DNA of 64,000 nt from Proteromonas lacertae (taxonomy: Eukaryota): positions 1 through 64,000 of the forward strand of contig NGBS01000009.1 of NCBI GenBank assembly GCA_002245135.1. The letters run 5' to 3'. The position numbers and the translations under genes are program-made. Shown here in pieces: positions 1-58,571 of the stretch; position 1 is the first letter of the stretch; each line of letters begins with the position of its first letter. The notes under the pieces are model-generated. The model ran no database searches, was not told where the DNA came from, and saw only the letters and a program-made list of their open reading frames with translations.

Positions 1-10
1 CGTTGTGCTA

Positions 11-3000
11 TTATATTTGTAACATTTGTTGTAGTTGTTGTGGTGTTGCTGTGTCTGCATTTGTTTCATAATCAGTTCTTCCAGTTGGTTTACTTCCTGG
101 TGGAGATAATGGCCTGATTTTATTGGCTAAATGAATTGATGAATATACATCCTTTTTCATTCCTTCTTTTTCTTTATTACTACTATTATCTGAAGATGGT
201 TTCATTGATGAATATTCTCTTACTATTTTATAGAATTTTGGAGTTATTATAATCAATGTTATTCCAATATTAATCAACACTATTCCTATACTCTCTAATA
301 AGAATTTAGCTGCTGGAGATGATGTTAATGTCATTCAATAGCGAAGTATAGAACAAAACACACAAATAAACATCCAATACATGCTGTTAATGTGTTTGAA
401 TCATTATAATCATCAACACAATTTCTAGTTGTATAGGAATAGTATAAACCTAATACAAAGATAAATAATAGGAATATAAAAAACACTGCATCATATACAA
501 CTGATCTATTACATGTTGGAATATAATATGAAACTAAATAATTACCTTCATCTGTTGAAATTTTTTCTTCATATTTCGAGAATGGATATATTAATCCCCA
601 TATTAATGATAATACCACAAATATTGATAAATAAAAAACAATCTCATAAATACTTCTCATTATTTATTCTTAACCTTTTCATATCTCTATTGTTATAAAC
701 TGCATGAATTCTCCAAGTTCTTAACACAATTATACAAGAGTAATTCAATAATAATAGATAAAAGATTGCTTGAAATACCATACACGTTCCATCACTATAT
801 TGAGATATATTCATTGGAATGATTGACCATAATATTGTACCACTGAATAAGAAATATATTACAAATGTATGACTTGCTGCTCTTATTATTTTGAATCTTC
901 TGAATTTAATTATAAATCCAATTACTATATAAATTGCTATTGAAACTAGTACCATTACTACTATCACAGCTATTAAACTATCACTTGTAATTCATATCTT
1001 AATAATAATGGTCCAACATTACATTCTGCTACATCACCATAATAAACTTCTGGATGTTTCATTACAGTAAATTTCGTATCATCAACCAATACTGGTATTC
1101 CTGACATACTTAATTCGGCTAATTTATTACTTGAATAAATTGATTTGTTACTGTTCCTTGTTTTTCCTGAGGATGTATCTATTAATATTAATTGACTAGC
1201 TCTTCGAATATAATCTAAGGAAACTACATTATCATTCACATCTAAACCATCAGATTTCATCAGATTTCTACTTTGAGTATATGAATTAATGAATATTTTG
1301 TAAATACTTTCAAAATCAGATATTGACTGAGATATAACATCAATTTTACCAACATTAGTATTTACATAGTTTTGGAAATTAATTGAGTTTATATTGGTAT
1401 TATCATTCAAATATGTTCTAGTTATTATATTTCCATACAATCTTGGCATTTTATCTGTTCCTAATTCATATTCATCAACATAATAAATAATTTGAAGTGC
1501 TCTAATATAAGATATTTGATTGATGTAAATAAAATCTTCAAAAATGTTAATTCATTACCATTTAATGAGTTTAAAATTAGTATTGTATCATTCCTTATAA
1601 ATTCTTTTATAAACATTACTGTTTCATTTATTAGTTTAGTTCTTTCACTATTTTCTATACCATCAAATACAGGAATTACATATGTTTTAACAATTACACT
1701 ATCTTCAATATATTCTTTTACATTTTTAGTTATATAAGCTATCAAATCATCCATATATCCACTTACAACCATACTTCTTGTATTAATAACATTATATTCT
1801 TAAATCCTAATCTTTGACTGAATTTCAATGATGGTCAATTCTACTCTTCATTGATGCAGAAATAAAGAATATATATTTATTACATATTGGCGGATATACA
1901 AATACAGTCGAATAAATCAATTTGTATTGATTTTTCTTTCATAATTGAGTAATAAATATCTAATCACATCCATAGAATTTGATGTAAATAATATCTTATA
2001 TTCATTGTTAACTTCAAACAAATTATCAAACACTAACTTGTCCTTATTTTCATCATTATAATATGGAAATACTTTAAATTCAATATGAACATTTGTTGAA
2101 AATTGAACTTGTTATTATCTCTAATTAATGAATCTATTAATATAATAATATATGTGATAATTTCTTCTGTTTTTCTTTAGAATAATCAAGCAATAATCCT
2201 ACTTTAACATTTACCTCTCTCGTTGTACATTTCTCAATATATTTATCATAATCTCTTGGTGCTAATTGATTAGTTACATCAATAATTCTTTTTCATTTCA
2301 TACTCACAGTTAAATTCTGTATGGAAATAATACCTTTGAATGTATAAATCACCTCCTAAATACATCGTTACTCCACTGTTAGAATATTGATGATTTATCA
2401 ACTGAGTGATATAATCTCTCGAAGTATAACTAGATAATAATAAATTTTTATCATTATTACTAGTGAATCTGTTTAAAACTAACTCTAACATCTTAAATGC
2501 TGAAAATATATCTTCTGTTGAAGAAGAATAGTAATTATCATAAGGGAAATAATCTTTACAATATTTTTGAAATGTTTTTGTTCCATTTGATAAGAATGAA
2601 TATGAAGAATTCTGTAATGCTGGTGTATAGGTTACTATTGATTTTACATCACATAAATATTTTTTATAAGAACCATGATTTGGTATTTCCATTAATGAAA
2701 ACATATTGTATATAATTATATCTTTTATTTTTGTCAATAATCCTTTCATATATATACTTATATTCTTCTCCAACATCATTTTTATATATTGAAACAATTA
2801 TATAACACTTATTCTTAGATGATTTACAATAATCATAAATACTATTATATAACTTTTTTTCTCACTCTCATCTTTATATAACTCATCATATACATTGAAT
2901 TGTTGATAATAAAGGTTTGAATCATTCAAACTTTTATCAATATGATCTATTAACAATTTAGACATGGGTGAATAATTATATAATATAATCACATCATTAG

Positions 3001-6000
3001 ATTCTCTTATAAATGATCTTTCATGTAAATATGAAATAATTGCTAATGAATTAGTCATATGAATGATATTATCTCTACATACTATTTGAGTATCATATCC
3101 AACTGTTAAATATAGTGTATCATTATAAAGATTAAGTTTGGAAACATCAAAAAATCCAAAAGATGTAAATACTATATTAATCTTATTCTTATGCATTTCA
3201 TCTAAATACTTTTGTAGTTCATTTACATCTCTCTTTTTCATATTATGTGATTTTACAGCTAAATATGTATTACTACTGAATGAATTTACATCATTATAAT
3301 CATCTACTAGTTTGACTAACATATAAACCGTTGAATTCCATTATAATAATCTTCAATAGTTAATGGTAATATCAAACCAATGTAATATAAATTCAATTCT
3401 TTATTACCTGAATGACTATTCATATCATCATTCCACATACAAGCTGTAAGTTTATTATTATTTCCATTATTAACACCATCAAAGTCATAATTATCATCCA
3501 TACTAAATAATAAAGCTGCATTTGGTGAAAATGAATATTCTATCAATTCTCCATTGAATTCATAATAAGACATTGTAATTGATTTTGTCAAATAATTGTT
3601 TCTTTGCATATATATTGCATTTCTATTATCCATTCCTTCATTTTCATAAGAATAACACTTAAAATTATATACATGTTCTCTAAAATGTTTATCATTTGGG
3701 GTTAATTGCCATATTCTTTCAAATTCGTACCAGAAATATAATATGTTCAATTCTGATACAACATCTCTACTAAGTTCTTTATCCAGCAATAATGAAGTAT
3801 AATCAAAATCATACAATACTTTGGAAATATAATTTTCTAAATCATCATCATTATTAGAGTCATATTTATAGTTATTCTTCTTACTACTAAACTTTCCATT
3901 CAAATTCCAGAAATGAGGTAAATATTTATATTTCATTGGTTTATTTTCAGGATGTTGAGACATATAAAATATATTATTTACATCTATTGAATTGGTTGTT
4001 AATAGTGTATTATTTATATAATCAGAATGTAATCTAAATCTTCAATATCACTTGAATCCATCATTATTGCAACTTTATAGTCAATAGATTTTTCTAATAT
4101 TCCATTCAATTCATTCTTACTTTCTTTAATATCATCAAATGTCATTGAATATATTTCTGGAATTAATAAATACTGTCCTGTCTTCTCAAATATTGATGTA
4201 ATTTTAACATAATCATTATCATGAATCACTACTAATATGAAATATCTAAATATATTATAAAATGTTTCTAAAACAACAGGAACATTACTCTTTGGCACAA
4301 ATGAACCATGATAACATTTTCAAAACAAAATGTCTCATTTACTTCATTGATTATTGTCACTTTGAAGTTTTTTTCCTTCCACCCAAATTGATAAACTTTT
4401 TCAAACATTCACTTGGTAAGTATAAATAAACAGTTGAATCATATTTGAATTGTTTAATTATATTCTCGAAATCATCACATTCTGATTCAGTTCTTAATAA
4501 ATAGCTTCTTATATCAAAATAATCGTTTGTGTCTTTTCCTAATATATTAAATCGTTCTTTAATTGGCATGGAACATTCCATAAATTTCATAATCTTTGTC
4601 ACTTCTAATCATTATTACTGTTTCTATTACAATTACTGGAACAGTATAAATATATTCTTCTTTTGTAAAATCACACATTTTCCCTTGGTTCAATTCCCAA
4701 TTAAATGCATATGGATATTCATTGAAATAATACCTCTTTAATATTTCAACTGTATTATTTGCATATACTCTAGCCAATTGATAATAATTGAAAATGTTAT
4801 TATTTGATGCTAATTGAGTTATTCCTTCATGACTATCAAAATCAGAATAATAAATACTTGATAAATTGAATTGAGTTATTTCATTGTTTCTATTCATAAC
4901 TATATCTGAATCTTTCATTTTTTGGAATAATTTATTTAGTATTATAAATGCCATAAATATATTTGACATTTGATTGAATGGTTCAGATATCATTGAGTAT
5001 TCATATAAGTACTTTAGAAACACTTTGTTCATATCACCTTCTTCATTATTCTTATTAAAATAACCACCTATTATATCAATTCTATCTTTCAAATAGAATG
5101 GCATTGTTTTAACATTCTTTTCTGTTAGTAATAATGCTATTATTCCCCACTTATCTCTATCCAAATTTCTTATATAAAACTCATATAAAACTGATTGAGA
5201 ATCTCCTAAATCTGTTGCTAAAAATATTACTCCAGCAAATTCCTCTATTACTCTCATTGAATCATTCATTTCTGTTGCATTTGACACATCAACACTAATT
5301 GATGGAGATGGACGATCTAGTCTGTCTTTTAACAATTTCTCCAATATATTCTTTACATCAATCGTTGATTGATCATTTGAATTATAAAATATATATGATA
5401 TATTAGTAAGATATCCATTCAATGCATAGTAATACATTGAATTGAAATAATATTGACTTGGAACTCCAGATGTTATAATTACGTTCTTATAACATATTTC
5501 GCCAGTTACTGGTGTAGTAATAAAATATAATATATCTTTATGATCATCTTTTATCTTATTGATTATTATCTTCATACATTCTTTTGAATTACCACTTATA
5601 ACTATCTTAAATCCTTCTTCTATCGCTTGATCAATTAATGATTCACATGTTGTTGTTGGTGAACTTTCTATATCAAATAACTTGTAAGAGATTTGATAGT
5701 TTTCATTTTCATTCTGTACATAATTATATCCTGCAATGGCAGATAGATAATTTGAAATATCATAGTAATTATCATTATGACTAATAGAAAATACCAAAGC
5801 AATTTTTATTTTCGGTACTTTTGTAACTCCTTCAATATTATCCAATATTCTATTCTTTGTATGTTCTACAATCGGTTGTAAATCACTAACTTCACATCTT
5901 TTACCACTGTATGGAGGAAATGGTTCAGATTTAACTGGCGATGAAGATTTAAATACAGTTTTAAACTTCAATGTAACATTATCACTTTTATCAACTTCTT

Positions 6001-9000
6001 CTAATTTTATGAAATAGAAATATCCTTGAAAATAATGATTCTTTCCTATATAAATCTACTCCAGCTGGTGTTACAATAGGAATCTTATAAAATGTATAAA
6101 TCAATTCACTAACTTCATTACTGTGTATTGTATGTGTCGAATATCTTAAGAACAATGGTATAGTATATAAATTATAAGTTAATCTAGATAGAGTTATATT
6201 TTTACCATATTTGTCATAATATCTATTCAATATTTCATAAGTTATTGAATTATCTTCTCCTTCTTCTTTAGCTTCAGTTGGATTAAAGATTGTGAAGAAA
6301 TAAGTATCTATTGTTGGTTGTACTTTATCACTTGCATCAAATGTGATTAAACCTGGATCAATATTTAAACATATAATTTTGCTTGAACTTCCAACCACAT
6401 TATAAGAATATAACTCTGTTAATAATGAACTAATTTGATTTGGAGATACAATTGTAACAATACAACTATTGTGACTTAAATATTGATTTAATGAACTTAA
6501 TATATTATAATATTGACTAGTATTATCACTAATTGCCAGTTTATAACTAATTTCCATTCCATTTTCTACAAACATATTCTCATATATTTCTAACAAAGTT
6601 TTATGTTTTTGAGTAACACTATATAACATTAATATATTCTCACAATTATTGATCATATATGATAGTCCAGGTTTCATTGACTCATAGATACTTCCACCAT
6701 AGAATAATATATTATTATTATTACATTTTGCTATATATGTATTACTTGCTACAATTAACAATATTGAATTATCATTTTCAATTTCATTCGATATTATTGT
6801 TATTAATGGATCACTTAAATAACCAATAAATATTCTAACACCTAAATCCATCAACTGTCTGAATGATATGATGAAATCTGTTTCATTTGTGTTGGATGTA
6901 TATGTTAATGATTTATAACTAGCTGTAACTCCTAATATACCTCCATATTTGTTGTTTATATTATCAATTCCACTTTCAAAGGATGTTTTTACCATTTCTC
7001 TTTCAATTCCAAATGTTTCATCATGTATTAAACCTAATGTGAATAAATTGATGGGTCTTAAATCTGGTTCATTTTCTTCAGTGAAATTACAATAATTTCT
7101 CATCACATTTGAATCAACATATAATATGTTTGATGTTTTAGTTGTTGAAACATAGCTAATTACATTAAACTGACTAATCTTTACTACAACTGAAGGTAAA
7201 CGTTCATACAGATTAGATTTCATAGAATTAATTCCACTTACAGTATCAAATTGTGTAGTTAAGCATTGTTCTTTGTAGTGTATATAAATCATATGGATTA
7301 TGAGATGTGATCTGATCATGGAAATTGAAAAATGCATCAGCTGCTAATAACTCATATATATAAAATATCTTATCTTTTCTATAAATTGTATGATATATAT
7401 TATCAAACAAATTACTTCGTTCTGTAGATAAGAAGAAATCAAATATTGTGTAAAAATAAATATTGTAATTTCTAGCGGATATAGCATTATCATTAAAGAA
7501 CGATGTTAATGCATAGAATTGATAATTTCCTCCTAATTGCATAGTAGAAAAAACATTCATAATTTGATTGGTTTTTTCTGCAATATTATATGTATTAAAT
7601 ACTATAATATTACCACCTGTTGGCATAAATGAATATATTTCTTTGATTATATTATCTATTGAAGCAGTATTATTTTCAATATCAATATATATTACATTTT
7701 CAGAAAATGAAATTGATTCTTTTATATTGTTAATGATTTTCACTTTATTTGGTATATCACTATGTAGAATTACTAATTTTCGATTTGTAGTATGAACAAA
7801 GTTATACATTGTTGTAATCAACAAATCATTTGCAGAATATGTAAATACTCTTGGACTACATTTCTCCAATGAATAATAATATCCAATATACCACAATTGC
7901 ATATCATATTGATCTAATTTCTTAACAATATGATCCATCATAACTCCTCCTAATACTCCAAACACATGTTTGATATTATATTTAGTATGAAATTCTTCAA
8001 ATATTTGACTTATCTCTTCTTCTGTATTTGCATGTTTTACTATTCCTTCATATTGAAATTTTGTATCAGCAACATTATTAAAATAAGTTCCCAGTGCATA
8101 TATTATCCTAGAAACCATTCCAGATTCATATTTTAACTTTTCACATCTTACAAACAACATACCAAACCTTACTTTAATTCTATTGGTGATGAATTCGTTT
8201 GTAACATTACTGTTTGAAGCAGATGAAGTAGAAGAAGTTGTCAATATTGTATCATATTTACTACAATCACAAACTTGACTATTTTCCTCAATAAACATTA
8301 TTGCAGGTAATGGATATTTAAAACTACTTGTAGGAAAAAAGTTATTATCACCATTTAAATCTACATATATTATCATAACAGTCAAATAATGAGATAATTG
8401 GTTACTAATTGAAAATGTCAATGGAGTATCTAAACCGATATTTAATTCAGTTTTTCTCATATTTATATCACAATTCTTTTCTTCTAAACAATTTGAATTC
8501 ATATTTATCGATAAAGTCAACATTGATTGTGCATAAAATAATGGATATAATAGATAATTATAATCATAATAAATATCTTCAAATTCTGTAATACGATCTA
8601 AAACAACATTAACAAACTTTGATTCACTTTCTTTTATATGATCTGAAATAAACATAAAATTATCTAATTTTGGATTATGTATTGTTTTAAGGCTTTTAAA
8701 CTTCATTAATGATGGTGTATATGAAGGAAATGGAAGTCTTGATGATTGAAATTCTGCTCCAACTTCTAATATTTTTTTATCATCATCTAAATTCACTAAT
8801 ATTCCACAATTACCATCTGGAAATTGAGTTTTTATATCTATAAATATATCACTTATTGATTTTGTATTGATTGAAGTTCTAACTACTTTCATATCTGTTT
8901 GATCTAACTTCTTCAGTGTTTTTATTATGTATTTATACATTTCATCATCATTCTCATCGTCTATATCAGTTATTATGTAAAAACTTTTCAATTTTGAGTC

Positions 9001-10133
9001 TAAAGCATAATAGATTACAGGAAAATAGAGTTGAATCAAATTGAAGTTTGTATAGAATAGATATGGTGAACAATCATTTTTCTCATTCAAATACAAATCA
9101 AATGTTATTATTTTCTTTCTACTGGTTATTTCTATCAGTTTCTTCATCTTCATGTAATTATCACCAGCTAAGAATGCGATTGGATTATATTTCTCTATTA
9201 ATTTTTCCACTTGAGTCTTTAACTTCTCAGGATTATTACTCAATTGATATTCTATTACTCTATATCTATACTTAGTATCATAAAACGAAACAGACATTAA
9301 ATTAGTCACTGTAAATAATGAATTCATTAACAATCGAGGAATTGTTTCAAATATACTGATTATTACTATAGTTTTACCTTCTTTTGTATAATTACTATTA
9401 TATTTACTCCAATCACATACACAATTCTCATTTACTGTTGATGAAGTGTGAGGAACTGGAAACCATTCATAATTGTAAATTATCTTCTTTATTTCTTGAA
9501 TAATGGTAAAATCTTTTGGATCAACTGTCTTGCATAATTTTGTTATTAATTGTAATGTATTTTCTCTTGTATATTGTACTTTATATTCTTCGCTGTAAAT
9601 ATCTAACGATGGTAAAATAGATAGAATATTATCAGGTGTTATTGATGTTAAAGTAGTGAATATTTGATATGCAATCTGAGTAGATAAATATGCAAAATAT
9701 GCAATTTCAGTCATCAAGTTGTTTGGACTTATTATTTTGTATGTATCACATATATGATTATTATTTCCACATTTACCATCAAAATACATTATAGTGTAAA
9801 AATCTTTCCACTATTAAAATATAACATATATAATATATATAAATACAGAATTATCATCAACATAATCAATATAAGATAATCCCATTATATAAACTTTAAA
9901 TTGATTTTCACTATATCCTTTACGACTGTATTGTTTCATAAATTCAGATGAATATGGTGGAGCTGTTATTGATATAATTAATATATTATTCTTTGTCTTA
10001 TATCCATCGATTGTTGTGATAATACTTTGAACAGAATTCTGAATATTATCCAACTGAATTATTAAAGATTCTAACAGAGTATTATTCTGTTTGATTGTAT
10101 TTTCTGCATATGTTTTAAGTGTTTTTGCAGCTC

Positions 10134-10168
<35 letters not shown>

Positions 10169-11723
10169 TTTATACTCAGTTTTTGCAGTAATTAATATCA
10201 CATCTTTCCTATCATTTTCCAAATTCAACATCAAATTTAAGATTGATGGAACAGTTAAACCTGTATTAAATACTCTTGGATGACAATACAAACCTGAAAG
10301 ATATCCGATATTGAAAATGACAGGTAAATCATCATGATTTTCATGATAGATATCTAATTGAGGTATATCTTTGTTTATAATATTTCCATGTGAATAATAA
10401 ATAATAACCTTTATTTTATTCTCTACATAATAATCATATTGTTCAGCAGGAGTATGTGAGTAATTTGAATCTACCAGTAATATCAGCCTTTTATTACCAA
10501 CTTTCTCAAGATTATTTGCATTTGCAGATATATATACACTGTTGAATATGGGAATGATATATTCAGCTTTCAATGACCTATCAGTAATTAATCCTATAAA
10601 AAAAACATCTTCTACCTCTAATTCACCTATTTCATTACATCTATTCTGATCTATTACACTAAAATCGTCATATGCCTCTAAAGGAAAGTAATTTCTGAAA
10701 TTGTGTATAAATTTGATATCTCCATTTGCTTGCACCTCTCCTAAATAGGAACTTCGCATAAAATATTGATTTGTATATAAATATATAAGATCCTCTGAAA
10801 CATATGCATTTATTCTTTTAAATGTCATATTTTGAATAAAAACCGATACAGGTACTTTGTATAAACTATCTATACACTGTAAAATCATTTTCAGGAATAT
10901 TCCACTGATATACAATGAATCAGTTAAATATTCACCTGAAGCTAGATTTAATGCTGTTAAAAATGCTTGATTCTCAGGAGATGGATAATTCATCAAATAT
11001 CCTGAATATATATAAGCACCAGCGAATAGAGTAGTATCTTTGTGAGTAAGGTATTCATCAGCACTTAGAACAGCTATTTTATACCCTTTAGCAGCAACAT
11101 TGTATTGGTTAAAATATTGGACTATTTTTATCTGTTCATCATACTTTCTATAATAATCAGCAATTGTAATGGCAGTTGTTGTATGTTCTAAGTTCTTCAA
11201 ATATTTTTCAGCATCTGCAATCTCCATTCTATTGTTTAAAATCTTTATACCAAGCAGCGTGTAAGTTCTGACCAATCTATTATAATCATCTTCATTATTA
11301 GTCAATATAATTGATTTATATTCACTATTAACTATAAATGAGTTGGCTATGATAATAATAAAGAGATTAAAGCATACCTTGATAATCTAAATTTCTGATA
11401 TTGATTGAATTAATGAGATTAGGGTTACACATTGGTTCAATATATTGATTAGCGACGAATAAAATATTTGACGAGTTTGAAGTGTCTATTAGGCTTTCTT
11501 TTTGAGATAAAAGAATGTTTATCTTGTGTCGTGTAACTGGCTCATTATATACATACTCTAACTTATCACTAATATTAAGATAATCTGTTAATTTGAAGAA
11601 AACTGGCTGAAACTCTGCTTCCGTCATATAGGACTCTAATACTACATTAATAGTAAGTCTGTCACTCAAGGCGACTAAATGGCCATAAAATATAAATATT
11701 ATAATATATATCTTGTAGAACAT
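11..11723 (-). CDS. Giant class C (7tm_3, GABA-B/GRL-like) GPCR with ~9 tandem type-1 periplasmic-binding (UrtA/AmiC-like) domains; ~3,800 aa; 3 mini-introns near 5' end plus several frameshifts
   Basis: Signal peptide MFYKIYIIIFIFYGHLVALS. ORFs join via GT-AG introns (~11348-11378, ~10132-10171, ~9811-9846) and 1-nt frameshifts. C-terminal 7TM has class C motifs KFRRFKIIRAASHTF, C..F..LNYSCIIVLRTWRIHAVY, YYSYTTRNCVDDYNDSNTL. Ectodomain repeats carry GLYCHPRVFNTG / KNDCSPYLFYT / EKCSPRVFTYS and GAYIYSGYLMNYPSPENQAF. Confidence 0.85.
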
Positions 11724-12306: not shown

Positions 12307-14073
12307 GATGAAATGATATTGAAAATATTGGAATTGTATGATTTAATTAATAAAGAAGAGATTGGAGAATTAATAAAAGTGAGTGAAGAATATTTGAAAG
12401 AAAATGGATATAAATATTTGAATGATGGTATGAATTATATTGAAATTATTATTGAATAGAAAGATTGTTATATAAATTAAAGATAGAAAATTTAGAGACA
12501 ATATTAGAAAGTGAAAAACTGATAATCAAAAATGAGAATTGGTTATTAATTAGATTAATGAAATGGTATAGAAATGAAGAGAAGAAAATAAAAGAAGAAG
12601 AAGATAAGAAAGAATTGAATAAAGACTTCAAAATACTTTTATTAAAATCAATTCATTTTAAAAATCTAAACATAGGAGAAATAGAACAATCCCTATTGAA
12701 TGAATTGAAAATGATGGAAATGAATGAATATTTATTAGGAATGAAGAATAAAGTAAGTCATAAGAGTTTGAATATTGATATTAATGATGAAAGAACAGGT
12801 GATTTAGTATTGAAGTATTATAACAATGAAGAAGAAAGAATTGCAAGAAGAAGATTTGAGAGTGTTGAAGAATGAGAAAACAATCTCAATGTTATTAAAT
12901 AATGAAGATATAAAAATGAAAGAAATTGGATTATTAATAGTAATAGAAAGTGGAATTGTTTTTAAAAGTATTAATAAGTCTCTATAATTAAATTTTCATA
13001 GTATCTAGAAAATTGAAAAGAAATATATTTCTTCAATTAATAAATGAATACAATAGTATAGAAACTGGTAGAATAATAAAATGTTTATGTTTGTTTGTTG
13101 ATAATATAAAACACATATCTACAATAGAAGATATTTGTGGAAAAGAAATTCTTTTCAAATTATTAAACTATAGTTGTTATTATTCTAAACAGGTCAAAGA
13201 ACTAATAATTAGTTTTATTTATGAAATGAAATTTAACGAGGAAGAAAGAGGAGAGATGTTACAGCTAATAAACAAAGAAGAAATAAAAAAAGAAGTACTA
13301 TCAAAAAGAATAACATTTTTTGCATATTCTCAACCAGAGTATAAATTTTTATAAATGAAGAAGTATTAATATATCCAATATTTGATGGATCGAAATGTGA
13401 GTTTTCAATAACTCCTTCCTTACCTGATGGACTAAATATAGACAACAAAAAAGGAACAATTTATGGGAAAATGGATAAAGTTTTAGAAAAGAGAGAATAT
13501 GAAATAAGTTGTAAAAATATTCGAAATGAAAAGAAATTCAAAATATCAATACAAAATATTAATATAAAATTCACAGAATTATACAAAAGTAAAGGAATCT
13601 CTATATCTAGTAATGGAAATATAATTACGAATATACGACCCAAATTAGATGAATTTTGTTACTTAAATTTGAAAATGGAAAATGGAGTTTATCATATCAA
13701 ATATAAATTCTGTCTAAATCAATCATATTATGATAGGATCATTTTAGGTTTATCAACTAATAATACATATTCTGCTCATGATTTGTTAAATCAACCAACA
13801 ACATGCAATTATTTTGCATGTAAGCAAAAAAGTCAGGATATTATCTATTTTTGTTATATTGGAACAGTTGTTGCTTCAAATCCAAATTTCAATAATCATG
13901 GAGATGGTTCAATTTATGAAGTGATTGTTGATATGAATAAAAGAGAATTTTGGATTAGTCATAATAACTCACCTCCTGTTTTACTTGTAAAAGATTTACC
14001 TTCTCCATTATATCCTTATGCTTCAGTATGTACTACTGCAATTGAATTATTATCAGTTTCTCATCAATATTAA
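12307..14073 (+). CDS. BACK-like helical domain + putative Ig (He_PIG-like) domain + B30.2/SPRY-like domain protein; frameshifted, 5' end uncertain (possible pseudogene)
   Basis: LYKLKIENLETILESEKLIIKNENWLLIRLMKWY resembles BACK. FSITPSLPDGLNIDNKKGTIYG (~13400-13470) is a He_PIG-type motif. GDGSIYEVIVDMNKREFWISHN...LPSPLYPYAS is a SPRY-type C-terminus. Confidence 0.55.
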
Positions 14074-14406
14074 ATTAATTAAATTTTACGATTTTTATAA
14101 GTACAAACCAGTTCACCATAATTCACATCCTTATTAATTCGCTTATATCATTTTCCTACATATAAAATTAATCTAAATCATCTATAAATTGAATCAAATA
14201 TTCATTGAAAAAAGAATAAAATCAAAAAACATTAAACCATAATGAATGTTCTTTTCTTATATTTTTTAAATCAAACAGAGTAAAAATAATGCCATTTATA
14301 GATATATTTATGTTTTTTATATTTTTTAAAATACTATTTCAATCAATAAACATTTACTTAAATATAATTTAACAATAAAATAAACTATCTAAAAAATGAT
14401 GTTTAA

Positions 14407-15897
14407 CTACTGTATAATACAAACTTCGGATTGCATTTGATTTGCTTTTAGTGTAGTATTTAATTCATCTTTTTCTAAATCAACACTCACATCAAATACA
14501 CAGAAAACTGGATTATGATCAGAAGTCTTCATTGTATTCTCATCACTGTATATTAAACAATCAACTTTACCTTTCGTTTTAAACACACATCTATCAGTCC
14601 AAGAAGGTATACGATGCTTTTTAGATGTATCATAAGTATCAGTACCTTTATCATATTTATAAGTAGGTCTAAAAAACAAGGGAGCTTCTTCAAATCCTTG
14701 GAATATCAATCCTTTCTTCTTATTAATCGTTAATTGATCATTATTCATCAATACTTCATACAAATTCTCTTTTAATAAAGTATCAACCATCTTTCTACTA
14801 CCATTAATTCTATAATTAAAATCGCCAGTCCAAAAGCAATGGTCAAATCTATCTTCTACATTTGGTGCAATAGGATCACCCAATGAAAGTGAAGTAGAAA
14901 TTGTCATTTGATCCAAATTCCTCTTCTTCTCACCATTTTGACCAGCAGCAAAATGTGAGGTAATAAATATTATTGAAGTTTTTCCTAACACAAAACTCAT
15001 TCCAATTCCTCCTTTATTACCCATTGTTTTACCAATACCAGTTGCAACAGATTGACTTTGTATATCAGTGATATATGGTATTAATGATTTATGTATATAT
15101 AACAATATATTAATTGCTTGAAGAGTATGTGATTTTATTAATGTATAATGTTCACCTAATGTTTCATTGACTTTAGATATCCATACACTCTTTGATGTAT
15201 TGATCATACTAGCTGCTATTCCTCTTTCACATTCTTGACTTGCTATACAGTAAATATGATATTTATTCTTCTTGATTAAAGGTGTTATATCATCTGGTGG
15301 TGGTTTTCCATACATATTCCAGGTAGTAATGAAGATTCTGATAGATTTTAATTCTTTTATTATATTGATTATTTCTTCGTATGGTTTGTCTCCTAAATCA
15401 TACTCTTCTACTTCTGTTAATTTGTTGTATATTTTTGGCCATTCTTGTGCTGCTTTGGGTCTTGATGATTCTGGAGCTACTCTAGCGGATGATGAGGAGG
15501 ATGCACTTTTAATTGCAAATGGATCATCTGGTGGTGATAAATTATCTACTAATCTTTTTGAATTTTGTCTCATAACATCTCTATATGTCAATATTTCATA
15601 TAAATATACAATGATTTATTGCTAGTTTCTGGATTTTCATTGTCGCTATCATCATCGTCTTCATCATCTTCTCTTTCACCTTCATCATCATTTTCTTGGA
15701 ATGGACCAATTTCTGGCACTTTTTCTCTAGTCACTCCTGGAGTTGGTGTATTACCTGTAGATACAGGAGTTCTAGTTAAGTATTAGAAGAAAATATACCC
15801 ATCCATCATTGATCCTTCAATAGAAAGTCTAAAAACATTATTTGTATTATTAATACCTTGTAATGATATTTGATGAAAGTTTTGCAATACTACTCAT
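14407..15897 (-). CDS. INPP5E: Inositol polyphosphate 5-phosphatase, INPP5E-like, with C-terminal CaaX (CIIQ)
   Basis: IFITTWNM, GNKGGIG, FITSHFAAGQ, FWTGDFNYRI, PTYKYD, RIPSWTDR, SDHNPV motifs. 5' mini-exons run up to the ATG at 15897. Confidence 0.8.
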
Positions 15898-20525: not shown

Positions 20526-20734
20526 AATAATATCTTTCGTTTTTTGTTTCATTTTATTGAATTTTACATTATATTCATTGTACACAAACAAATACAAGAT
20601 TTAAACTAAACAATACTTTGAGCATTTTTTTAGTCTTCATTACATTCATGCTCATTTCATTCTTGATGTAACTGATTTAATTATAAAAGAATTCTTTTCA
20701 ATAATTATTCCAAAATTAATAATTAGTATGATGA

Positions 20735-21052
20735 TATGATTATCATCTGATAATACATATTCTAATAATTATATATATCATCAATCCACATGTAATTATT
20801 TTGCATCTGGTGATACCAACCAAAAATGTGTTTGTAACATTGGAACAATTGTTACTTCAAATCCAAAATTCAATAATCATGGAAATGGTTCAATTTATGA
20901 AAGTAATTGTTGATATGAATAAAAGAGAATGGTGGATTAAACACAATAATTCATCTCCTGTTTTACTTGTGAAAGATTTACCTTCACCATTATATCCATA
21001 TACTGTGTTAATTAATAAAAACAAGTTGTTATTTGTTTCAAATCAAAATTAA
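20735..21052 (+). pseudogene. 5'-truncated, frameshifted SPRY-domain fragment paralogous to 13745-14073
   Basis: Near-identical DNA (gttgatatgaataaaagagaa, cctgttttacttgt.aaagatttacct.c.ccattatatcc); no upstream domains. Confidence 0.75.
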
Positions 21053-21329
21053 AAAATCTCATCTAATGTTTTTCATATTTGTTTAAAATGTATTCATATA
21101 AGTCAATGCTTTCTATTTGAAGAGATTTTTAAAAAGAAAATATTTCTCAAACCTCATTCAAATCAAACGATCATCAAGCCTAATGAATATTAAAAATCTA
21201 TTTATTTCATTATAACAAAGTAATCTTATAATAATATGATGAAAATGAAATATTTAAATGTAGAATGGATTGATTAGATATTTATTAAAATGAAAGTGGT
21301 GAATATAGATAAATAGTTTTATAAAAGAT

Positions 21330-21752
21330 ATACCAACCAATATATCAGTTAAGAATGATTTTAACACTCCTCAACCATGTTCACCTGGATTCTATTGTCC
21401 AATTGGATCAATGACAGCTGAAGGAACTTCTCCTTGTTTAAGTGGTCATTACTGTCCAAATAGAACACACACAATTAAATGTGAAAAAGGTCATTATTGT
21501 CAACCTGGTTCAACTTCTGCAACAAAATGTTATCCTGGAACATACAATGATAAGAAAGGTCAAACAACATGTAAATTATGTCCAAGAGGTACATGGTGTC
21601 CATTATATGGAATGGAAGTTCCTTGGATATGTCCAGCTGGTCGAGTATGTATAGAAAATGGTGTAAGTGAAGCTGTATTAATGTGTAAAGCTGGTTATTA
21701 CTGTTTGAATGGAACTGCATTATATGATATTGCAGAAAGTAAAGAAGAATGA
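21330..21752 (+). pseudogene. Fragment of Cys-rich repeat surface protein (GCC2/GCC3, ephrin-receptor-like CxxGxYC repeats)
   Basis: CSPGFYCPIGS, CLSGHYCP, CEKGHYCQPGS, CYPGTYN, CPRGTWCP, CKAGYYC. ORF ends where homology to the kinase-LRR cassette 3' flank begins. Confidence 0.65.
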
Positions 21753-21848
21753 ATTTCTATAGTATAAGAGAAATAACGAAATAATAATGTGTAAAAGAAT
21801 GTTAAAAATGAATTGAATAATAATAATAATAATAATAACAAAGGTTAT

Positions 21849-23592
21849 TTAAATCTCAAATTTCAATTCTTTGTTTGGATGATTTTCTTTGATTATTCTT
21901 TCAATTTCTTCTTCATTTGTTATTTTGTTATAACTAATATTCAATTTCTCTAATTTTGTAATATATTGAATATTATCACAAAATACTTTTATACTTTCAT
22001 CTGTTAAATTATTATCTATTATAATATAGAATAAAATAAAATACACTCCAAACTTAAATATTCTAAATTTGGAATATCTTTCAAATGAGAAAAGAAGAGT
22101 TTAAAACCATCATCACCAATTTCACAATCTATTCATTGTAATATTAAAGTAATAATACAATAAAAACTCAACCATTTCATGTTTGGAAATAAATGTAAAC
22201 TTTTACTTAATATTTCCATTCCTTCTTTTCCTATTCTATTACCTATATTATTATAAAAAACAAATCTAAAAATACGTTCTAAATCCAATTTTTCTAATTT
22301 TGGAATGAATTGAATATTTTCTACAAAATATTTCATTCCATTTGAAGTAATATTATTAAAATCAACATTCAATTCCATCAACTCAGGAAGATATTTGAAT
22401 GATTTACATATATGATTAAAACCATCATCACCAATATAATTCACTATCATTATAAAACAAAAGTATAAATACATCTTAAGTCAATAATTGTAATAAGTGG
22501 ATATAATTTCAATTTTCTACTCAAATATAATGCACCGACTTCTTTTATTGGTATATCAAAAACTATTCAAATATATAATAATAATAATACATCTATAGTT
22601 TAAATCCAATTTTGTTGATTTTTCATTTATCTTATTTAAAGCATTATCTATTCTTTCTTCTATTTTATTCATATTAATATCATATTTATACTTATTTTTA
22701 CATCTAATCCTTCTATTTCTTCTTCTTCTTCTTTCATTTCAACTACTTCAGGTAAATGAATTGGATCATTTATTATCTTTAATTCATTCAATATTTCATC
22801 GATTGATATTCGATTATTCTTTTCTTTCAACATCATCTTATTTAATAAACCATTCAATTCTTTTTCAAATTCACATTCCAACTTCTCATATTTACATTCT
22901 TCAATATTCTTCATGGTTTTGAATGGTGTTTTATCTTTGAATATTAATTTACCACTTATCACATAATAAAATATACATCCAAAACTCCAAATATCACTTT
23001 CTTTACTCACTTCATCTCCAATTATTTCGTCATAACTAATAAAACATATATTACCTCTTTCATCTTTTCTTTTATTCTCATTTCCTTTGAATAATTCATT
23101 GTTTAAATAATCACTCAATATCACTTCATTCTCTTTATCTAAAAAGATATTAGAAGGTTTTAAATCACCATGTGACATATTCAACATATGTAATCTCTTT
23201 AAACCATTACATATTCCACATAATACAGCATATGTACCAATTTCTTCGAAATATTTCAAAGGATTTATCTTTCCTAAGTTTATTCTTATATAAGGCATTA
23301 ATAGATAGAATTTATCTTCAATCAACATCAATTTATGGTATTTCATCAGATTTTCATGTTTTTCATTATTCACTCTCTCAATCTTACTAAAAACACTCTT
23401 CACTACATCTTCATTCAACTTGGAAGTATTTATCACCTTCATAAACTCTCTAACACCATTCTCTTTATTTTTAACTACCATTAATAAACATTTCACACTA
23501 TCTTTTTCTTCTAAAACCTATTTCATTAGATTATCATCAATTTATACTTCATAGTCACTATCTAATACATTTTCACATTTTATATTAATCAT
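21849..23592 (-). CDS. Atypical/pseudo protein kinase + RI-like 28-aa LRR protein (copy A, apparently intact)
   Basis: HGDLKPSNIFLD, SDYLNN in place of DFG, SDIWSFGCIFY. LRRs e.g. LPELMELNVDFNNITSNG, IPKLEKLDLERNRIGKEG; phase-1 mini-introns at the same LRR position. Confidence 0.85.
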
Positions 23593-23748
23593 TTTCACTT
23601 ATATCAATCACAATATCAATTCAAAAATAAAAGATCTCAAACAGAGAGTCGAGCCTAGATATGTTCTTTTTACATAAAAAAAACATAAACAAATAATAAC
23701 AAATAATTCTAGATATAAAATAATATAAATTTCAATTAATAAAAACAA

Positions 23749-31050: not shown

Positions 31051-31593
31051 GAGATTAAGTGAATGAGAATGTAATTTTAAATTGTGATATGAAATATGAA
31101 TTATTGAGCATGTTTTTAATACATCTGTGATAAAAGTGAATGAAATAAGTGAAATTCTTTGATTTATTAGTAAAACAGATAATACTTTAAAAAGTATTTA
31201 AAATCGTGACATTACTTGATTGAAACTATTTCTGATCAAAAACCAATTCTATTTCACGAAAATGAAAAACAAAATAGTTCAAGTTTTGGCTTGCCAACGG
31301 ATTTGTTTTAAAAGCAAGTTTTTATAGGAATAAGGTATTTTATCGGTATAATATTCTCTTTTTTCTTATTAAATCTACTGAAAGCATACTGTAATATTGG
31401 TATCGTAGGCTAAAGATTTTTAATTTAGCTAATATTCGATATTTATATCTACTATGGCTTTAATATACATTTTATATTATCTATTTATTTTATTAAACTG
31501 AATAGGAAGAATATAAGTCTATTTTCTCTCTCAAAATTCAATAAATATAGCAGTATATATTATTGTATATAGATAATACTTATAAGTGATTAA

Positions 31594-32767
31594 ATGAGAA
31601 TATATTACATTACTTTTTATAATTTTATCAATATACGGAAGTCAATGTCCAAATCTTTGTAGTGGACATGGCACATGTAATTCCAATGGTATGTGTAATT
31701 GCTTATCCTCAATGGATGGAAGGTGATTGCTCACAAAGTATACCTATTAATCAATAATTATTTCTCTAGGAACTTGTCCATATGGTGTTAGGAGTAGCTG
31801 ATCCAAATGGTCATGAATCAAAACACGATTTAGAATGTAGTGGTCAAGGTATCTGTGATAGAAGTACAGGATCTTGTCAATGCTTCAATGGTTTTGGAGG
31901 TTCATCCTGTGAGAGAGTGCTATGTCCAAATGATTGTAACGGACATGGTGTTTGTACTCAAGCCAATTATTTGAGTATTGATACAGACACTTATTATTAT
32001 GATCAATATATTAATAGTGATAGAATTGCTAAAGGTAATGATTTTAGTGAAAAATGGGATGGGAATGTGATATATACATGTTTATGTGATCCAGAATATA
32101 CTGGATTTGATTGTGCACAGAAGAAATGTAAGTTGGGATATCAACAGACGAGTTATTGTGATTCTCCATCACAGTATGTTCAAGAAATACTAATTGTAGG
32201 TAAAACTGTTACAGGAGGACAAAATCTAATTAGTGGATGTTTGGCTTATGCGAAATTATACTGATTCATTTGGTAGATCTTGGATTACTAGACCATTTAA
32301 TATATTCAAAGAAACTAATAAACCAACAGGTGATAAAATTACATACGATAATAAATGTGAATGATAAATCAAAATTCCCTTCATTTAAAGAAGCATTAGA
32401 ATCATTACCTGCTGGAGTTATTGATATTGAAAGTATTGATTTTAAACCTTTTAAAACTGGAGATTCAGCATTATCATTACAAATTAAATATGGAAATCAA
32501 CAAACTGGAAAACAAAATGCAATTCAAATAATACAAAACTCAGATTTTAACAAAGGTGATGGTTTTGATGATTCAAATCTTCCTCATGGTATTGTTGAAT
32601 TAAAAGATAATTATCCACTTGATGCAACTATTTTATACCAAGAAACTACATATATCCCACCAGTTGAATGTGCGAATAATGGTTATTGTAATCGTCAATC
32701 AGGTGTGTGTGAATGTTTTGATGGATTTTGGGGGGATGCATGTACAGAGATTGTCCCAGTCATGTAA
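31594..32767 (+). CDS. Tubular mastigoneme (Ocm1/Sig1/Mas-like) EGF-repeat protein, paralog 1 (one intron, frameshifts)
   Basis: Signal peptide, CPNLCSGHGTC, LECSGQGICDRSTGSCQCF.G..GSSC, CPNDCNGHGVC, WD...YTCLCDPEYTGFDC, terminal ECANNGYCNRQSGVCECFDGFWGDAC. Confidence 0.8.
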
Positions 32768-33122
32768 TTTATTTTATTATAATTGTATTAGAATGTGTTT
32801 ATTTTTAACATTTCAAAAATAGGTTAATGAAAAAATACCCCACAAAATTTTGATCAAGCCAAAACTTGCCAACGGATTTCTTTCATTTTTTGATTTTAGC
32901 ACGAAATTGAGTATATTATAATATAAAATCCTCTCTTTACTTTTACTGCACTAAATTCTATTGATAGAGCTTATAATATCCTTGTTTATTCACTTACATT
33001 CATTAATCTCGTTGTTATAACTATTTATATCTATTAATTATTCTCAATATTATTTAAATCTATTAATATATGCTTTATAATGATCAACCATTTATTATCT
33101 ATTTTTTAGATTAATAGTAGAA

Positions 33123-34355
33123 ATGAAATATATACAAATATTTTTATTGATATTAGCTGCTTATGGAGCTCAATGTCCAAATCTTTGTAGTAGTCATGGT
33201 AGTTGTAATGCAAATGGTTTGTGTAATTGTTATCCAGGATGGACAGAAGGTGATTGTTCTGCAAGAACATGTCCATATGGTGAAAGAATTGCAGATCCAG
33301 ATGGACACAATGAAGAGAATTACTTAGAATGCAGTGGTCAAGGACATTGCAATAGAGTATCAGGTGAATGTGAATGTTACCCAGGTTATGCAGGTTCGGC
33401 TTGTCACAGAACAGAATGTGTAAATCAATGCAGTGGTCATGGTGTTTGTACAAAAGTTGGTTATTTAGGAATTGAATATAATACATATTTTGATCCATAT
33501 TATTCTGATGAGAATAATAGATTGAGTGATTATAATAGTTGGGATAAAGAGAGTATGTATACTTGTGTTTGTGATAAAGAATATACTGGTTATGATTGTT
33601 CACAGAGAAAATGTGCAACTGGTTATAAAGAAACTAGTGAGTGTGATGTTTCTTCTATTTATACACAAACAATTGCATTATCAAAAAGAAATACTGAATT
33701 GGATGGTTGTTTAGCTTATGCAGAATATACAGATACATTTAATAGAACTTGGTATACAAGACCATTTAATATATTTAAAGATATGACAAATGATGAATAT
33801 ACATCATTAAACAATATTGCAAATAGGAAAGTTAAGTGTGGTAGATATACTCCTCAATTTCCATCATTATTAGAAGCATTGAAAACTTTACCATCAGGAA
33901 CAATTGATGTAACTGAAGTTAGTTTTGAAGTAAGTAGTACAAATGTATTTATTCATATTACATATGGAACTCAACAAACAGGAAGACAACAACCAATTAG
34001 AATTATTACAGCAGAAGATGAACCATTAGCATCAGCTTTAGCTGGAGATGCACAATATTGTGCAAATGTTCCACAAGTCAAACCAATTCAAGAATATAAA
34101 AGTGGTAATTCTGATACTTATAAAGATTTAATTGCAAAATACAAATGTCCTGGTAAAAATGGTAATCCTGACAAATGTAAAGCTGAAGATTTTAAAGCTA
34201 ATTATCTTCATGCCTATGCACTTCCAGTGAAAACAACATATGTTCCACCATTAGAATGTGCCAATAATGGATTATGTGATAGAACATCAGGTTTATGTCA
34301 ATGTTTTGAAGGATATTATGGTTTAGCATGTACTGAAGCTACTCCAGTAGTTTAA
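33123..34355 (+). CDS. Tubular mastigoneme (Ocm1/Sig1/Mas-like) EGF-repeat protein, paralog 2 (intronless)
   Basis: Same architecture: N-terminal EGF cluster, YTDTFNRTWYTRPF motif, single C-terminal EGF. Confidence 0.85.
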   Translation: MKYIQIFLLILAAYGAQCPNLCSSHGSCNANGLCNCYPGWTEGDCSARTCPYGERIADPDGHNEENYLECSGQGHCNRVSGECECYPGYAGSACHRTECVNQCSGHGVCTKVGYLGIEYNTYFDPYYSDENNRLSDYNSWDKESMYTCVCDKEYTGYDCSQRKCATGYKETSECDVSSIYTQTIALSKRNTELDGCLAYAEYTDTFNRTWYTRPFNIFKDMTNDEYTSLNNIANRKVKCGRYTPQFPSLLEALKTLPSGTIDVTEVSFEVSSTNVFIHITYGTQQTGRQQPIRIITAEDEPLASALAGDAQYCANVPQVKPIQEYKSGNSDTYKDLIAKYKCPGKNGNPDKCKAEDFKANYLHAYALPVKTTYVPPLECANNGLCDRTSGLCQCFEGYYGLACTEATPVV

Positions 34356-47191: not shown

Positions 47192-47241
<50 letters not shown>

Positions 47242-48851: not shown

Positions 48852-49982
48852 ATGAAGTTTTTCTTATTTATTTTATTAATCGTATGCCTAATTTTAAAAA
48901 TGTAATATATTCTAGATATATTCATACCAATATTTACCTAAAGGATGTACTTGTTTGAATGGCAACCAAAATATAGAGTATCTCGCTTAATACTATTGTA
49001 GAGAATGTACTGATTATGATTGCAGGTGTGCATGCGATTTAACAAATGTTTGTGATAGTAATTGCTGTTGTGATGAAGATGTATCTTTTTTTTGAATTTT
49101 TTTTATCTTACTAGTGTTCTGAAGATGAAAGGTCATTATCTTATGAATTAGGACAATGTGTATTCAGTGGTGCAGAAACATCCAGAGTAAGAATGTGTAG
49201 AAATAATGATTATTTTCAAAAAGTCAATTCATATACTAATATGAGAGTTACAAACATCGTATACATACTCATTTCATCCATTATTATTTAATAGTTTGAT
49301 AATCTGATGTGTGTAGAAGTAGATAACAATCCTTCAAAAGGTAACTTTTATGTTGAACCAGATTCATCAATCTCATTTCCTCCTATCACTCCAGAACCAT
49401 CTTCAGTTCCAAGTAATTTAATAAACGAATTCTATGTGACAAATTCTGATATATATGTAAGTGTAAATGAAACAGAAAATGAAGCAAATGAAATGAATGA
49501 AAGAGAGTTACAAACAATAACAGTAAATAATAAAGAACCATTAATATTTCTAACACCAGTATATATATAATATAATATAATTTATATATATATTTAATAG
49601 GGTTTCTCAAACCTTTGCTTGAAATCAAACAGAGCCAAATTTATGAATAGTCCAATCAAAACCACCAATTGTTTATATGAAATCAAACAAAATGAAGTGT
49701 TAGAAGATGGAATATTAGATCCAGCTTATTATACAAATATGATGTATTATACTACTCCCAATGGAACAGCAAAGAATCCAATAATCAGTTATAATGGAGG
49801 TGATTTAACAAAGAATGGAAATAACATCAATGATGTAGTGAATAGTGTAAATTATATTATCAAATATACATATGATACCACCAGTAATAATCAATCGAAG
49901 AAAATTATTGATGAATTTGATATAGCTATAACTACTACGAATATAGCGAATATACAATATCCTTATTATCATCCTATTACAG

Positions 49983-50017
<35 letters not shown>

Positions 50018-56466: not shown

Positions 56467-58571
56467 ATGATTAATATAAAATGTGAAAATGTATTAGATA
56501 GTGACTATGAAGTATAAATAGATAATAATTTAATGAAAATAGGTAGTAGAAGAAAAAGAGAGTGTGAAGATAATAAAGAACAAAATGAGTGGTATTTATG
56601 AATGTTTGAAGGTGATCAACACTTCCAAATTGAATGAAGATGTAGTGAAGAGAGTTTTTAGTAAGATTGAGAGAGTGAATAATGAAAAGCAGTGAAAATC
56701 TGATGAAATACCATAAATTGAATGTTGATTGAAGATAAATTCTATCGATTAATGCCTTATATAAGAATAAACTTAGGAGAGATAAATCCTTTGAAATATT
56801 GTCGAAGAAATTGGTACATATGCTGTATTATGTGGAATATGTAATGGATTAAAGAGTTTACATATGTTGAATATATCACATGGTGATTTAAAACCATCTA
56901 ATATCTTTTTAGATAAAGAGAATGAAGTGATATTGAGTGATTATTTAAACAATGAATTATTCAAAGGAAATGAAGGTGAAAAAGATATATGGAAATGAAT
57001 GATAATATATGTTTATCAGTTATGACGAAATAATTGGAGATGAAGTGAGTAAAGAAAGTGATATTTGGAGTTTTGGATGTATATTTTATTATGTGATAAG
57101 TGGTAAATTAATATTCAAAGACAAAACTCCATTCAAAACAATGAAGAATATAATAGAATGTAAATATGAGAAGTTTGAATGTGAATTTGAAAAAGAATTG
57201 AATGGTTTATTAAATAAGATGATGTTGAAAGAAAAGAATAATCGAATATCAATTGATGAAATATTGAATGAATTAAAGATAATACATGAAGTAAAATATT
57301 TACCTGAAGTAGTTGAAATGGAAGAAGAAGAAGAAGAAGAAGAAATAGAAGGATTAGATGTAAAAATTAGTATAAATATGATATTAATATGAATAAAATA
57401 GAAGAAAGAATAGATAATGCTTTAAATGAGATGATAAATGAAAATCAACAACAGTGGATTTTAAACGGTGAATGTATTATTGTTATTATTTATTTAAATA
57501 GATTTTGATATAGAAATAAGAGAAGTCGGTGCATTATATTTGAGTAGAAAATTGAAATTATATCCATTCATTACAGTTATTGACTTAAATAGTATTTATA
57601 TTATTGTTATTTATAATGATAGGTAATAAAATGGGTGATGAATGGTTTTAATCATATTTGTAAATCATTCAAACATCTTCCTGAATTGAAAGAATTGGAT
57701 GTTGGTTATAATGATATTACTTCAATTGGAATGAAATATTTTGTAGAAAATATTCAATTCATTCTCAAATTAGAAGAATTAGATTTAGAAGGTATTTTTG
57801 TTTTGTTTTTTATAATAATATAGATAATCAAATAGGAAAAGAAGGAATGGAAATATTAAGTGAGAATTTACATTTACTTCCAAACATAAAATGGTTGAGT
57901 TTTTATGGTATTATTACTTTAATATTACAATGAATAGATTGTCATATTGGTGATGATGGTTTTAAAATCTTCTTTTCTCATTTGAAAGATATTCCAAATT
58001 TAGAATATTTGAATTTGGTTGTATTTTATTTTATTCTATTCTATATTTTAATAGTAAATGTTTTAACAGATGAAAGTGTAAAAGTATTTTGTGATAATAT
58101 TCAATATATCACAAAATTAGAAGAATTAGATTTAGAAGGTATTTTTGTTTTGTTTTTTATAATAATATAGATAATCAAATAGGAAAAGAAGGAATGGAAA
58201 TATTAAGTGAGAATTTACATTTACTTCCAAGCATGAAATGGTTGAGTTTTTATGGTATTATTACTTTAATATTACAATGAATAGATTGTCATATTGGTGA
58301 TGATGGTTTTAAAATCTTCTTTTCTCATTTGAAAGATATTCCCAATTTAGAATATTTGAATGTTGATTGTATATTATTGTATTCTATTCTATATTTAATA
58401 GATAAATGTTTAACAGATGAAAGTGTAAAAGTATTATGTGATAATATTCAATATATCACAAAATTAGAGAAATTGAATATTATGGTATAACAACATCACA
58501 AATAAAGAAGAAATCAAAAGAATGAATCAAAGAAAATCATCCAAACAAAGAATTGTAATGTTGAGATTTAA
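56467..58571 (+). pseudogene. Atypical/pseudo kinase + LRR protein (copy B), many frameshifts (pseudogene or unpolished repeat), three extra LRR exons
   Basis: Highly similar to the reverse complement of 21849-23592, including introns and flanks. Confidence 0.75.
57767..58460 (+). repeat. Direct tandem duplication, 2 x 347 bp (three LRR exons + three introns)
   Basis: aaattagaagaattagatttagaaggtatt starts at 57767 and 58114; register resumes at 58461. Confidence 0.9.

Follow-up and report, generated by a model that had tools for sequence, protein, structure and literature searches.

Recently duplicated genes joining a degenerate kinase to a fast-changing LRR face: candidate cytosolic sensors in a protist

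Two closely related genes encoding a kinase domain followed by LRRs, here copy A and copy B, lie in one 64-kb stretch of DNA (the window), and the question they raise is whether the differences between them record the diversification of a receptor surface and, if so, by what route. The initial annotation, which described an exon-modular, immune-like family under diversifying selection, placed the system at 21849..22700; this interval covers only part of the copy A gene, and copy B lies outside it (Table 1). The reading that we favour, with a probability of about 0.5 as judged from the sequence, is that A and B are recently duplicated genes for a likely cytosolic sensor, in which a predicted inactive kinase is joined to a fast-changing LRR face that binds a probably foreign ligand.

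The window is eukaryotic and gene-dense, mostly with 20-33% GC per kb and with introns of about 25-45 nt as delineated by an ab initio parser. These values are similar to the GC and intron-size values given for Opalinata in the relevant part of a published account (PMC12129017), a lineage that the resemblance may indicate. Among the genes present are meckelin, STAG, a CENP-C-like gene, teneurin-type EGF genes and an INPP5E-like phosphatase, the last with an 87%-identical cluster of 15 members as its top match, followed by protist proteins at ~45% identity (Triparma among the named ones). Meckelin stands head to head with a gene that we take to be tectonic-like, a tentative label for a gene of which four pieces gave no Pfam match, and the ciliary genes suggest a flagellated organism. 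Positions 1-11700 (minus strand) hold a nearly intron-free gene of ~11.7 kb whose product has an extracellular part built of recurring binding-protein-like units and a C-terminal region that crosses the membrane several times, and is presumably comparable to a class C GPCR of giant size. Two tandem paralogous teneurin-type EGF genes (31592-32312 and 33121-33781, plus strand) are 66% identical, the first being frameshifted as assembled. Copy A itself sits in a patch of gene fragments: a frameshifted partial copy at 20724-21053 (+) is 76% identical to 13734-14074 (+), the SPRY-like end of the gene at 12456-14073, and an orphan ephrin-receptor-like cysteine-rich fragment (21309-21752) abuts the 3' end of A. 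Upstream of copy B, a large gene with fibronectin-like, glycine-rich and kelch-like parts (50950-56319, plus strand; labels by inspection) ends ~150 nt before it.

Also significant is the quality of the assembly. The parser placed 17 frame breaks in the first 9 kb of the window, which are the last 9 kb of the ~11.7-kb gene, and five in the CENP-C-like neighbour. Applied roughly to 17 other stretches, it found breaks in 15, or left only 3 without one, depending on the counting of missed introns, which some of the frame breaks may be; the stretches with zero breaks were INPP5E, YebC and one quarter of the first gene, the other 14 carrying at least one. Scattered single-base frame breaks of this kind suggest an unpolished long-read assembly, and they call for caution over broken genes reported from the same assembly source.

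Table 1. Window positions of copies A and B, their parts and three ciliary-type neighbours.
Feature	Position	Strand	Remarks
Copy A, whole gene	21849..23592	-	8 exons, 7 mini-introns, 510 aa, frame intact
A exon 1	23548..23592	-	15 codons; intron 1 = 23547-23518, 30 nt, phase 0
A exon 2	22692..23517	-	degenerate kinase domain and acidic linker; Pfam Pkinase 5e-28; intron 2 = 22691-22660, 32 nt, phase 1
A exon 3	22591..22659	-	69 nt; helix and irregular cap repeat; intron 3 = 22590-22563, 28 nt
A exon 4	22473..22562	-	90 nt; ends within repeat 1 strand; intron 4 = 22472-22444, 29 nt
A exon 5	22276..22443	-	168 nt; includes the repeat 2 strand, which lacks an intron, and stops within strand 3; intron 5 = 22275-22243, 33 nt
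A exon 6	22159..22242	-	84 nt; one repeat; intron 6 = 22158-22129, 30 nt
A exon 7	22045..22128	-	84 nt; one repeat; intron 7 = 22044-22016, 29 nt
A exon 8	21849..22015	-	167 nt; repeat 6 and C-terminal cap with HPN motif, a cap also found in P0090 and P0098
Copy B, whole gene	56467-58571	+	90% identical to A over 1793 nt; three extra repeats; frameshifted as assembled
A-B homology, A side	21747..23703	-	gene plus ~110 nt upstream and ~100 nt downstream
A-B homology, B side	56352-58679		as for the A side
Tandem 347-bp duplication in B	57775..58468	+	spans three repeats and their three introns; 7 substitutions and 4 one-base gaps separate the units
Hybrid 84-nt exon of B	58055..58138	+	repeat-6 helix followed by repeat-3 strand
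INPP5E-like phosphatase	14407-15615		by Pfam
Meckelin	45797-48770		by Pfam
Tectonic-like gene	49100-50704		assumed label

Removal of seven GT-AG introns of 28-33 nt from copy A yields an open frame of 510 codons, and the ab initio parser, given no exon borders, recovered six of the seven without a frame break; the one that it read through is 33 nt long and stop-free in A, its counterpart measuring 32 nt in both B copies. The product comprises a kinase domain and acidic linker (residues 16-290), an irregular cap repeat, six 28-residue repeats with their strands at residues 343, 371, 399, 427, 455 and 483, and a short cap. The 28-residue period of an LxxLxLxxN strand and a helix marks the repeats as RI-type and, together with the Pfam Pkinase match, bears out the kinase-LRR architecture originally proposed. 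In the PDB, exon 5 matches LRRC34 (best), a GALA protein and ribonuclease inhibitor (E 0.002), its match to Pfam LRR_6 lying below the cut-off, and a single-sequence fold of exon 8 was uninformative (pTM 0.44). By inspection, the translation contains no hydrophobic segment that could form a signal peptide or membrane helix, in agreement with the intracellular location claimed for it, and the 510 residues hold kinase, linker and LRR only, with no NACHT or NB-ARC domain.

Introns 4-7 all have phase 1 and interrupt the codon that comes immediately ahead of the Asn in LxxLxLxxN, while repeats 2 and 6 have no intron. The idea of phase-1 introns at one LRR position is thereby upheld for these four, with the amendments that the split codon directly precedes the Asn (LxLx-split-N) and that intron 3, in the cap repeat, keeps another register. 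The accompanying statement that the exons are mostly of 84 or 168 nt does not describe the gene, as the six exons of the LRR region measure 69, 90, 168, 84, 84 and 167 nt, three of the six having either length. The two introns flanking the kinase exon appear more alike than the rest, matching at 26 of 32 bases, compared with 18-25 for most other intron pairs of the gene.

The kinase domain scores 98.6 bits against Pfam Pkinase (cut-off 31.7), as expected of a Hanks-type fold. The canonical features of an active kinase (glycine loop, alpha-C Glu, HRD Asp and DFG) are nevertheless not all intact in copy A: the glycine loop is absent, the catalytic loop reads HGDLKPSN, DYL stands in place of DFG and, by inspection, a Lys occupies the expected alpha-C Glu site. 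From these motifs the domain is likely to be catalytically degenerate, that is, a pseudokinase, although some activity may persist, since the beta-3 Lys, the catalytic Asp and the Mg-binding Asp are retained. Solved structures gave no match to A's kinase at E 1e-18.

The degenerate kinase is not confined to this locus. Among the best 150 representatives listed by an exhaustive search are at least 41 clusters of DFG-less kinases, less than 50% identical to each other, membership being partly circular in that it was defined by a score of at least 140 on a profile combining A with 31 proteins of the family. A regular-expression read of 40 of the 41 clusters (one row was misparsed) found DFG in none, with the catalytic Asp kept in 7 and replaced by Asn in 28. 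The ten clusters that were looked up all derive from Logan assemblies. By our own labels, ten of the 41 have LRR tails and five SPRY-like tails, with Pfam giving an LRR match in seven of the ten and a sub-threshold SPRY match in one of the five; in P0282, P0108, P0125, P0165, P0221 and P0001, SPRY-like domains and a low-complexity tail rich in proline occur as fusion partners of the DFG-less kinase. The closest relative among the matches listed, P0074 (60% identity), has Asn (HGN) in all 12 of its members, and its ORF ends at the site of A's intron 2. In a kinase tree of 47 rows, A groups with P0074 (99/97) inside a six-member clade (100/98); repeated swapping of LRR and SPRY tails is unsupported by this tree, because the deep branches are poorly resolved.

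Relatives of A also bear on the age of the intron site. All six of those whose frame stops inside the LRR end in LxLx[C/S/G]I, a sequence found in none of 30 internal strands, and reading through a phase-1 GTAT intron placed at the codon that is split in A would give just such an end, so that the intron site is an old family trait, patchily kept; four other LRR relatives have long intron-free LRR runs. P0080 matches ribonuclease inhibitor in the PDB at 1e-29. The AlphaFold model of P0090, which stood in for A's spliced protein, has a disordered linker between a kinase fold and an RI-type solenoid of 28-residue strand-helix units (mean pLDDT 90), and aligns with known kinases with Z up to 24 (rmsd 2.7 over 231 residues). 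Searches with the LRR reading frame 22160-22444 yielded no candidate, and a longer-protein search (27 matches) yielded no full-length spliced homologue; the ESM Atlas gave generic kinase-LRR clusters only. Scans for related loci returned L001 and L002 from metagenome contigs, L003 from genome contigs and nothing from viral contigs, of which L001 lies in a bacterial polysaccharide locus and matches by chance on the opposite strand, and L002 and L003 are both 37% matches over the same 57 residues. A literature search over the main texts of openly accessible papers found no description of a DFG-less kinase family, and in both versions of the Blastocystis genome paper the main text does not mention LRR or kinase.

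How, then, did the two copies arise? A self-comparison of the window recovered only A, B and an internal duplicate of B. Since the introns are kept and the homology is limited to the gene and short flanks, A and B derive from a DNA-level duplication of a single gene, the introns also ruling out a retro-copy; transposon-like ends were ruled out as well, in that no terminal inverted repeat stands out. The introns of both genes measure 28-34 nt overall. Copy B has nine repeats compared with six in A, and at the join of its tandem duplication the hybrid exon passes from repeat 6 into repeat 3 inside an 8-nt word common to both (58114-58121). The three extra repeats are thus the product of unequal crossing-over within coding sequence, not at intron positions, and represent exon-unit duplication in a broad sense only; with the break inside an exon, intron-mediated shuffling is ruled out for this event. 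That the duplication is an assembly artefact we reject by inference from the in-frame 84-nt hybrid exon at the 8-nt shared word.

The differences between the copies are concentrated on one surface. The predicted binding face was taken as x2, x3, x5, x7, x8 and x10 in each of repeats 1-6, leaving out codons close to gaps; A and B have different residues at 18 of its 34 sites, compared with 16 of the 129 other codons of these repeats (Fisher p=2e-6), a rate four times that elsewhere in the repeats; the kinase and linker differ at 23 of 263 codons. When the differences were permuted across the 28 repeat positions without classes set in advance, two statistics gave p=0.0006 and 0.0013, and swapping in B's first duplicate for the second changes the face result little. 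Changes occur at x10 in all six repeats, at x8 in four and at x7 in three; x10, which carries much of the signal, was in the site set from the first count, a set chosen after the A/B example segments quoted in the initial annotation were known. Charge-altering changes make up 12 of the 18 on the face versus 4 of 16 elsewhere (p=0.02), the net face charge passing from -3 in A to -9 in B, whose face is the more acidic, and eight of the 18 changed face codons carry two or three substitutions. An artefact of splice junctions is ruled out, as intron-free repeats vary as much as intron-bearing ones (6/10 versus 12/24 face changes) and intron 6 shows no difference between A and either B copy although both its flanks have changed, an identity that also confirms the reported conservation of intron sequence.

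This clustering sustains the earlier view that A and B differ mainly at the strand x positions, a view that has to be widened to include variable patches in the kinase N-lobe, the activation segment (where the two kinases differ most) and the linker. The segments quoted for it, IIDLRLNY/VIDLNSNK, MELNVDFNN/KELDVGYND, EKLDLERNR/EELDLEDNQ, WLSFYYCE/WLSFYDCH, YLSLEYNN and YLNVDYKC, were recovered exactly, with the exception of YLNLVVNV, which is not spliceable as written, its exon being 83 nt long with a further -1/+1 pair after the intron.

By simple counting, dN on the face is 0.37, in comparison with a whole-gene dS of 0.14 and an intron divergence of 0.07. A two-class maximum-likelihood codon model of our own making was fitted to these two sequences only (463 codons kept, 47 of 510 near gaps or otherwise unusable being dropped). 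Under equal, F3x4, window F61 and third-position frequencies, respectively, the face omega is 3.4, 2.2, 1.8 and 2.5 (p for omega=1 of 7e-5, 0.011, 0.064 and 0.004), and that of a stricter xxLxLxx set is 2.4, 1.5, 1.2 and 1.8 (p 0.012, 0.23, 0.57 and 0.11), omega=1 being rejected for the stricter set in one of the four models. The non-face omega of 0.24-0.47 shows that the framework of both copies is under purifying selection. The seven-fold difference in rate between face and non-face codons is solid; positive selection on the face, with omega >1, is likely, and rests on x10 and on the choice of model. The diversifying selection originally proposed is therefore favoured, in a form that with two sequences is model-dependent (face p from 0.064 to 7e-5).

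Exposed residues vary more in any protein, and the pattern could in principle reflect relaxed constraint, with exposed strand and loop residues drifting freely while the fold is kept and no ligand driving selection. The AT-rich codon bias, by which simple dS is underestimated, speaks for such drift, as does the fact that omega=1 stands for the face under F61 and for the xxLxLxx set in three of the four models. However, all eight omega point estimates exceed 1 (1.2-3.4), the multiply substituted codons and the enrichment of charge changes point the other way, and the convex helices, which are also exposed, are far less changed (13 of 100), so that we hold free drift to be rather unlikely. Improbable in our judgement is that the genes encode an ordinary signalling adaptor, each copy having retuned its LRR face once, in a short burst, to a different endogenous partner with no role in defence. 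RI-type LRRs do serve many housekeeping functions (LRRC34 being the best PDB match), and the LRR positions of the intron-less relative P0090 vary little among 13 members, those of P0080 at two positions among four. Against this, the repeat number has changed as well as the face, and the subfamily of A and B is more variable in the relative P0074 too, where the 12 members differ by a mean of 3.6% in mosaic blocks with several types of activation segment, although P0006 is about as variable (3.2%) and such mosaicism, seen in other clusters as well, may represent alleles, population variation or assembly chimeras.

A further concern is copy B itself, which as assembled carries no fewer than 11 one-base indels in its coding sequence, 8 of them insertions and 3 deletions, plus one further compensating -1/+1 pair, and AT-rich genomes can show high indel rates. 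Were B a decayed pseudogene or a mis-assembled haplotype, the contrast with A would be partly artefactual, and the face differences between its two duplicated units do lie in an indel-damaged stretch. Yet the sole apparent stop adjoins an insertion and is not an independent change, leaving no independent nonsense substitution (random substitutions give a stop in 6.6-10% of cases); the non-face codons have stayed constrained, and errors striking at random would not single out repeat positions 7, 8 and 10. Since the rough parse shows broken frames in many parts of the window, local assembly error probably accounts for the indels of B, and uncorrected long-read error is likelier than recent pseudogenisation. 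Furthermore, A and B are not alleles, because their flanking genes differ; we regard an artefact of a decayed or mis-assembled B as very unlikely.

The arrangement can be compared with several described LRR systems. The type II LRR-kinases of Ectocarpus (Zambounis et al. 2012, PMC3341825) are stramenopile proteins, as A and B probably are, and like these have a kinase, LRRs and repeat-sized exons, and the parts of that account describing them report positively selected concave-face sites and no reshuffled or spare exons; their repeats are of 24 aa in 72-nt exons, in contrast to the 28-aa RI-type repeats, 84/168-nt exons, 30-nt introns and degenerate N-terminal kinase of A and B. The Ectocarpus LRR-ROCO genes, as described in the same source, share the exon-modular LRR, local repeat duplications and a proposed recognition role, whereas A and B have neither a Roc-COR domain nor intronic or antisense spare exons, show a sole duplication that breaks inside an exon, and do not follow the rule of one 72-nt exon per 24-aa repeat (69-168 nt in the LRR region of A). 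The exon shuffling of Ectocarpus, invoked earlier as a parallel, is accordingly a weak analogy, given 30-nt introns that lack spare exons and a repeat-number change that broke inside coding sequence. Vertebrate NOD/NLRC and NLRP genes, from the sections of Hoss et al. 2019 (PMC6642158) that treat exon structure, resemble A and B in their RI-type 28-aa repeats, one or two per exon, in exon borders at one fixed beta-strand point and in the possibility of in-frame skipping, alternative splicing being demonstrated there for NLRP3; they carry a NACHT domain where A and B have a pseudokinase. In Tetrahymena LRR genes, according to the portion of PMC6564038 (2019) concerned, a junction codon is likewise divided by introns that share one phase, and added repeats are proposed to arise when exons cross over unequally, but the phase is 2, the arrays are of 90-nt exons encoding 30-aa units, and the genes number in the thousands with a linked retrotransposon, compared with phase 1, 84-nt/28-aa units and two genes in 64 kb here. 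The repeat-per-exon, variable-face design is thus already known from brown algae, ciliates and animal NLRs and is not new; the novelty lies in the degenerate kinase partner and in the breadth of the DFG-less kinase family.

In comparison with plant LRR receptor kinases, which have a signal peptide, extracellular N-terminal LRRs, a membrane helix and a C-terminal kinase, the domain order of A is reversed. Degenerate kinase folds serve as binding surfaces in host-microbe conflict in Toxoplasma ROP5 and Arabidopsis ZED1/RKS1, to which A and B are likened by description; in distinction from them, ROP5 is secreted and has no LRR, and ZED1 works with a separate NLR. The activation segment, as a second variable patch in A and B, recalls such polymorphic or decoy pseudokinases.

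The recognition reading of A and B builds on the gene structure, the degenerate kinase motifs, the rates, the excess of face changes and the crossover inside an exon, and from these we infer the ligand, the catalytic inactivity, the cytosolic location and the immune role. The concave face and the loop after each strand would bind a ligand that itself changes fast, the most plausible candidate being an invader's protein, whether viral, bacterial or other, and the kinase-fold domain would pass on the signal without catalysis, as a scaffold or decoy. New specificities would come from whole-gene duplication, from point substitution at x7, x8 and x10 and from unequal crossing-over that changes the number of repeats. 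The fixed intron site would have spread with the repeats as an old family trait and would permit in-frame exon skipping; nothing shows it to be a driver of diversity.

A lineage-specific pseudokinase-LRR family acting as a variable cytosolic sensor is, overall, the likely identity of these genes. RI-type LRR and SPRY/B30.2 are sensor domains used by animal NLRs and TRIM proteins, and a broader, doubtful extension would give this protist lineage a modular innate immune repertoire, with one dead-kinase module joined to interchangeable RI-type LRR or SPRY/B30.2 domains in dozens of members, two fast-evolving surfaces (the LRR face and the activation segment) and junction codons recombinable by exon skipping. 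Little is established about the way in which unicellular eukaryotes detect viruses and bacteria within the cell. If the sensor reading is true, a pseudokinase family with swappable LRR and SPRY-like tails, and with a face on which positive selection is likely, would offer a concrete and small (510 aa) candidate receptor, and would represent another independent origin of the repeat-per-exon, variable-face design.
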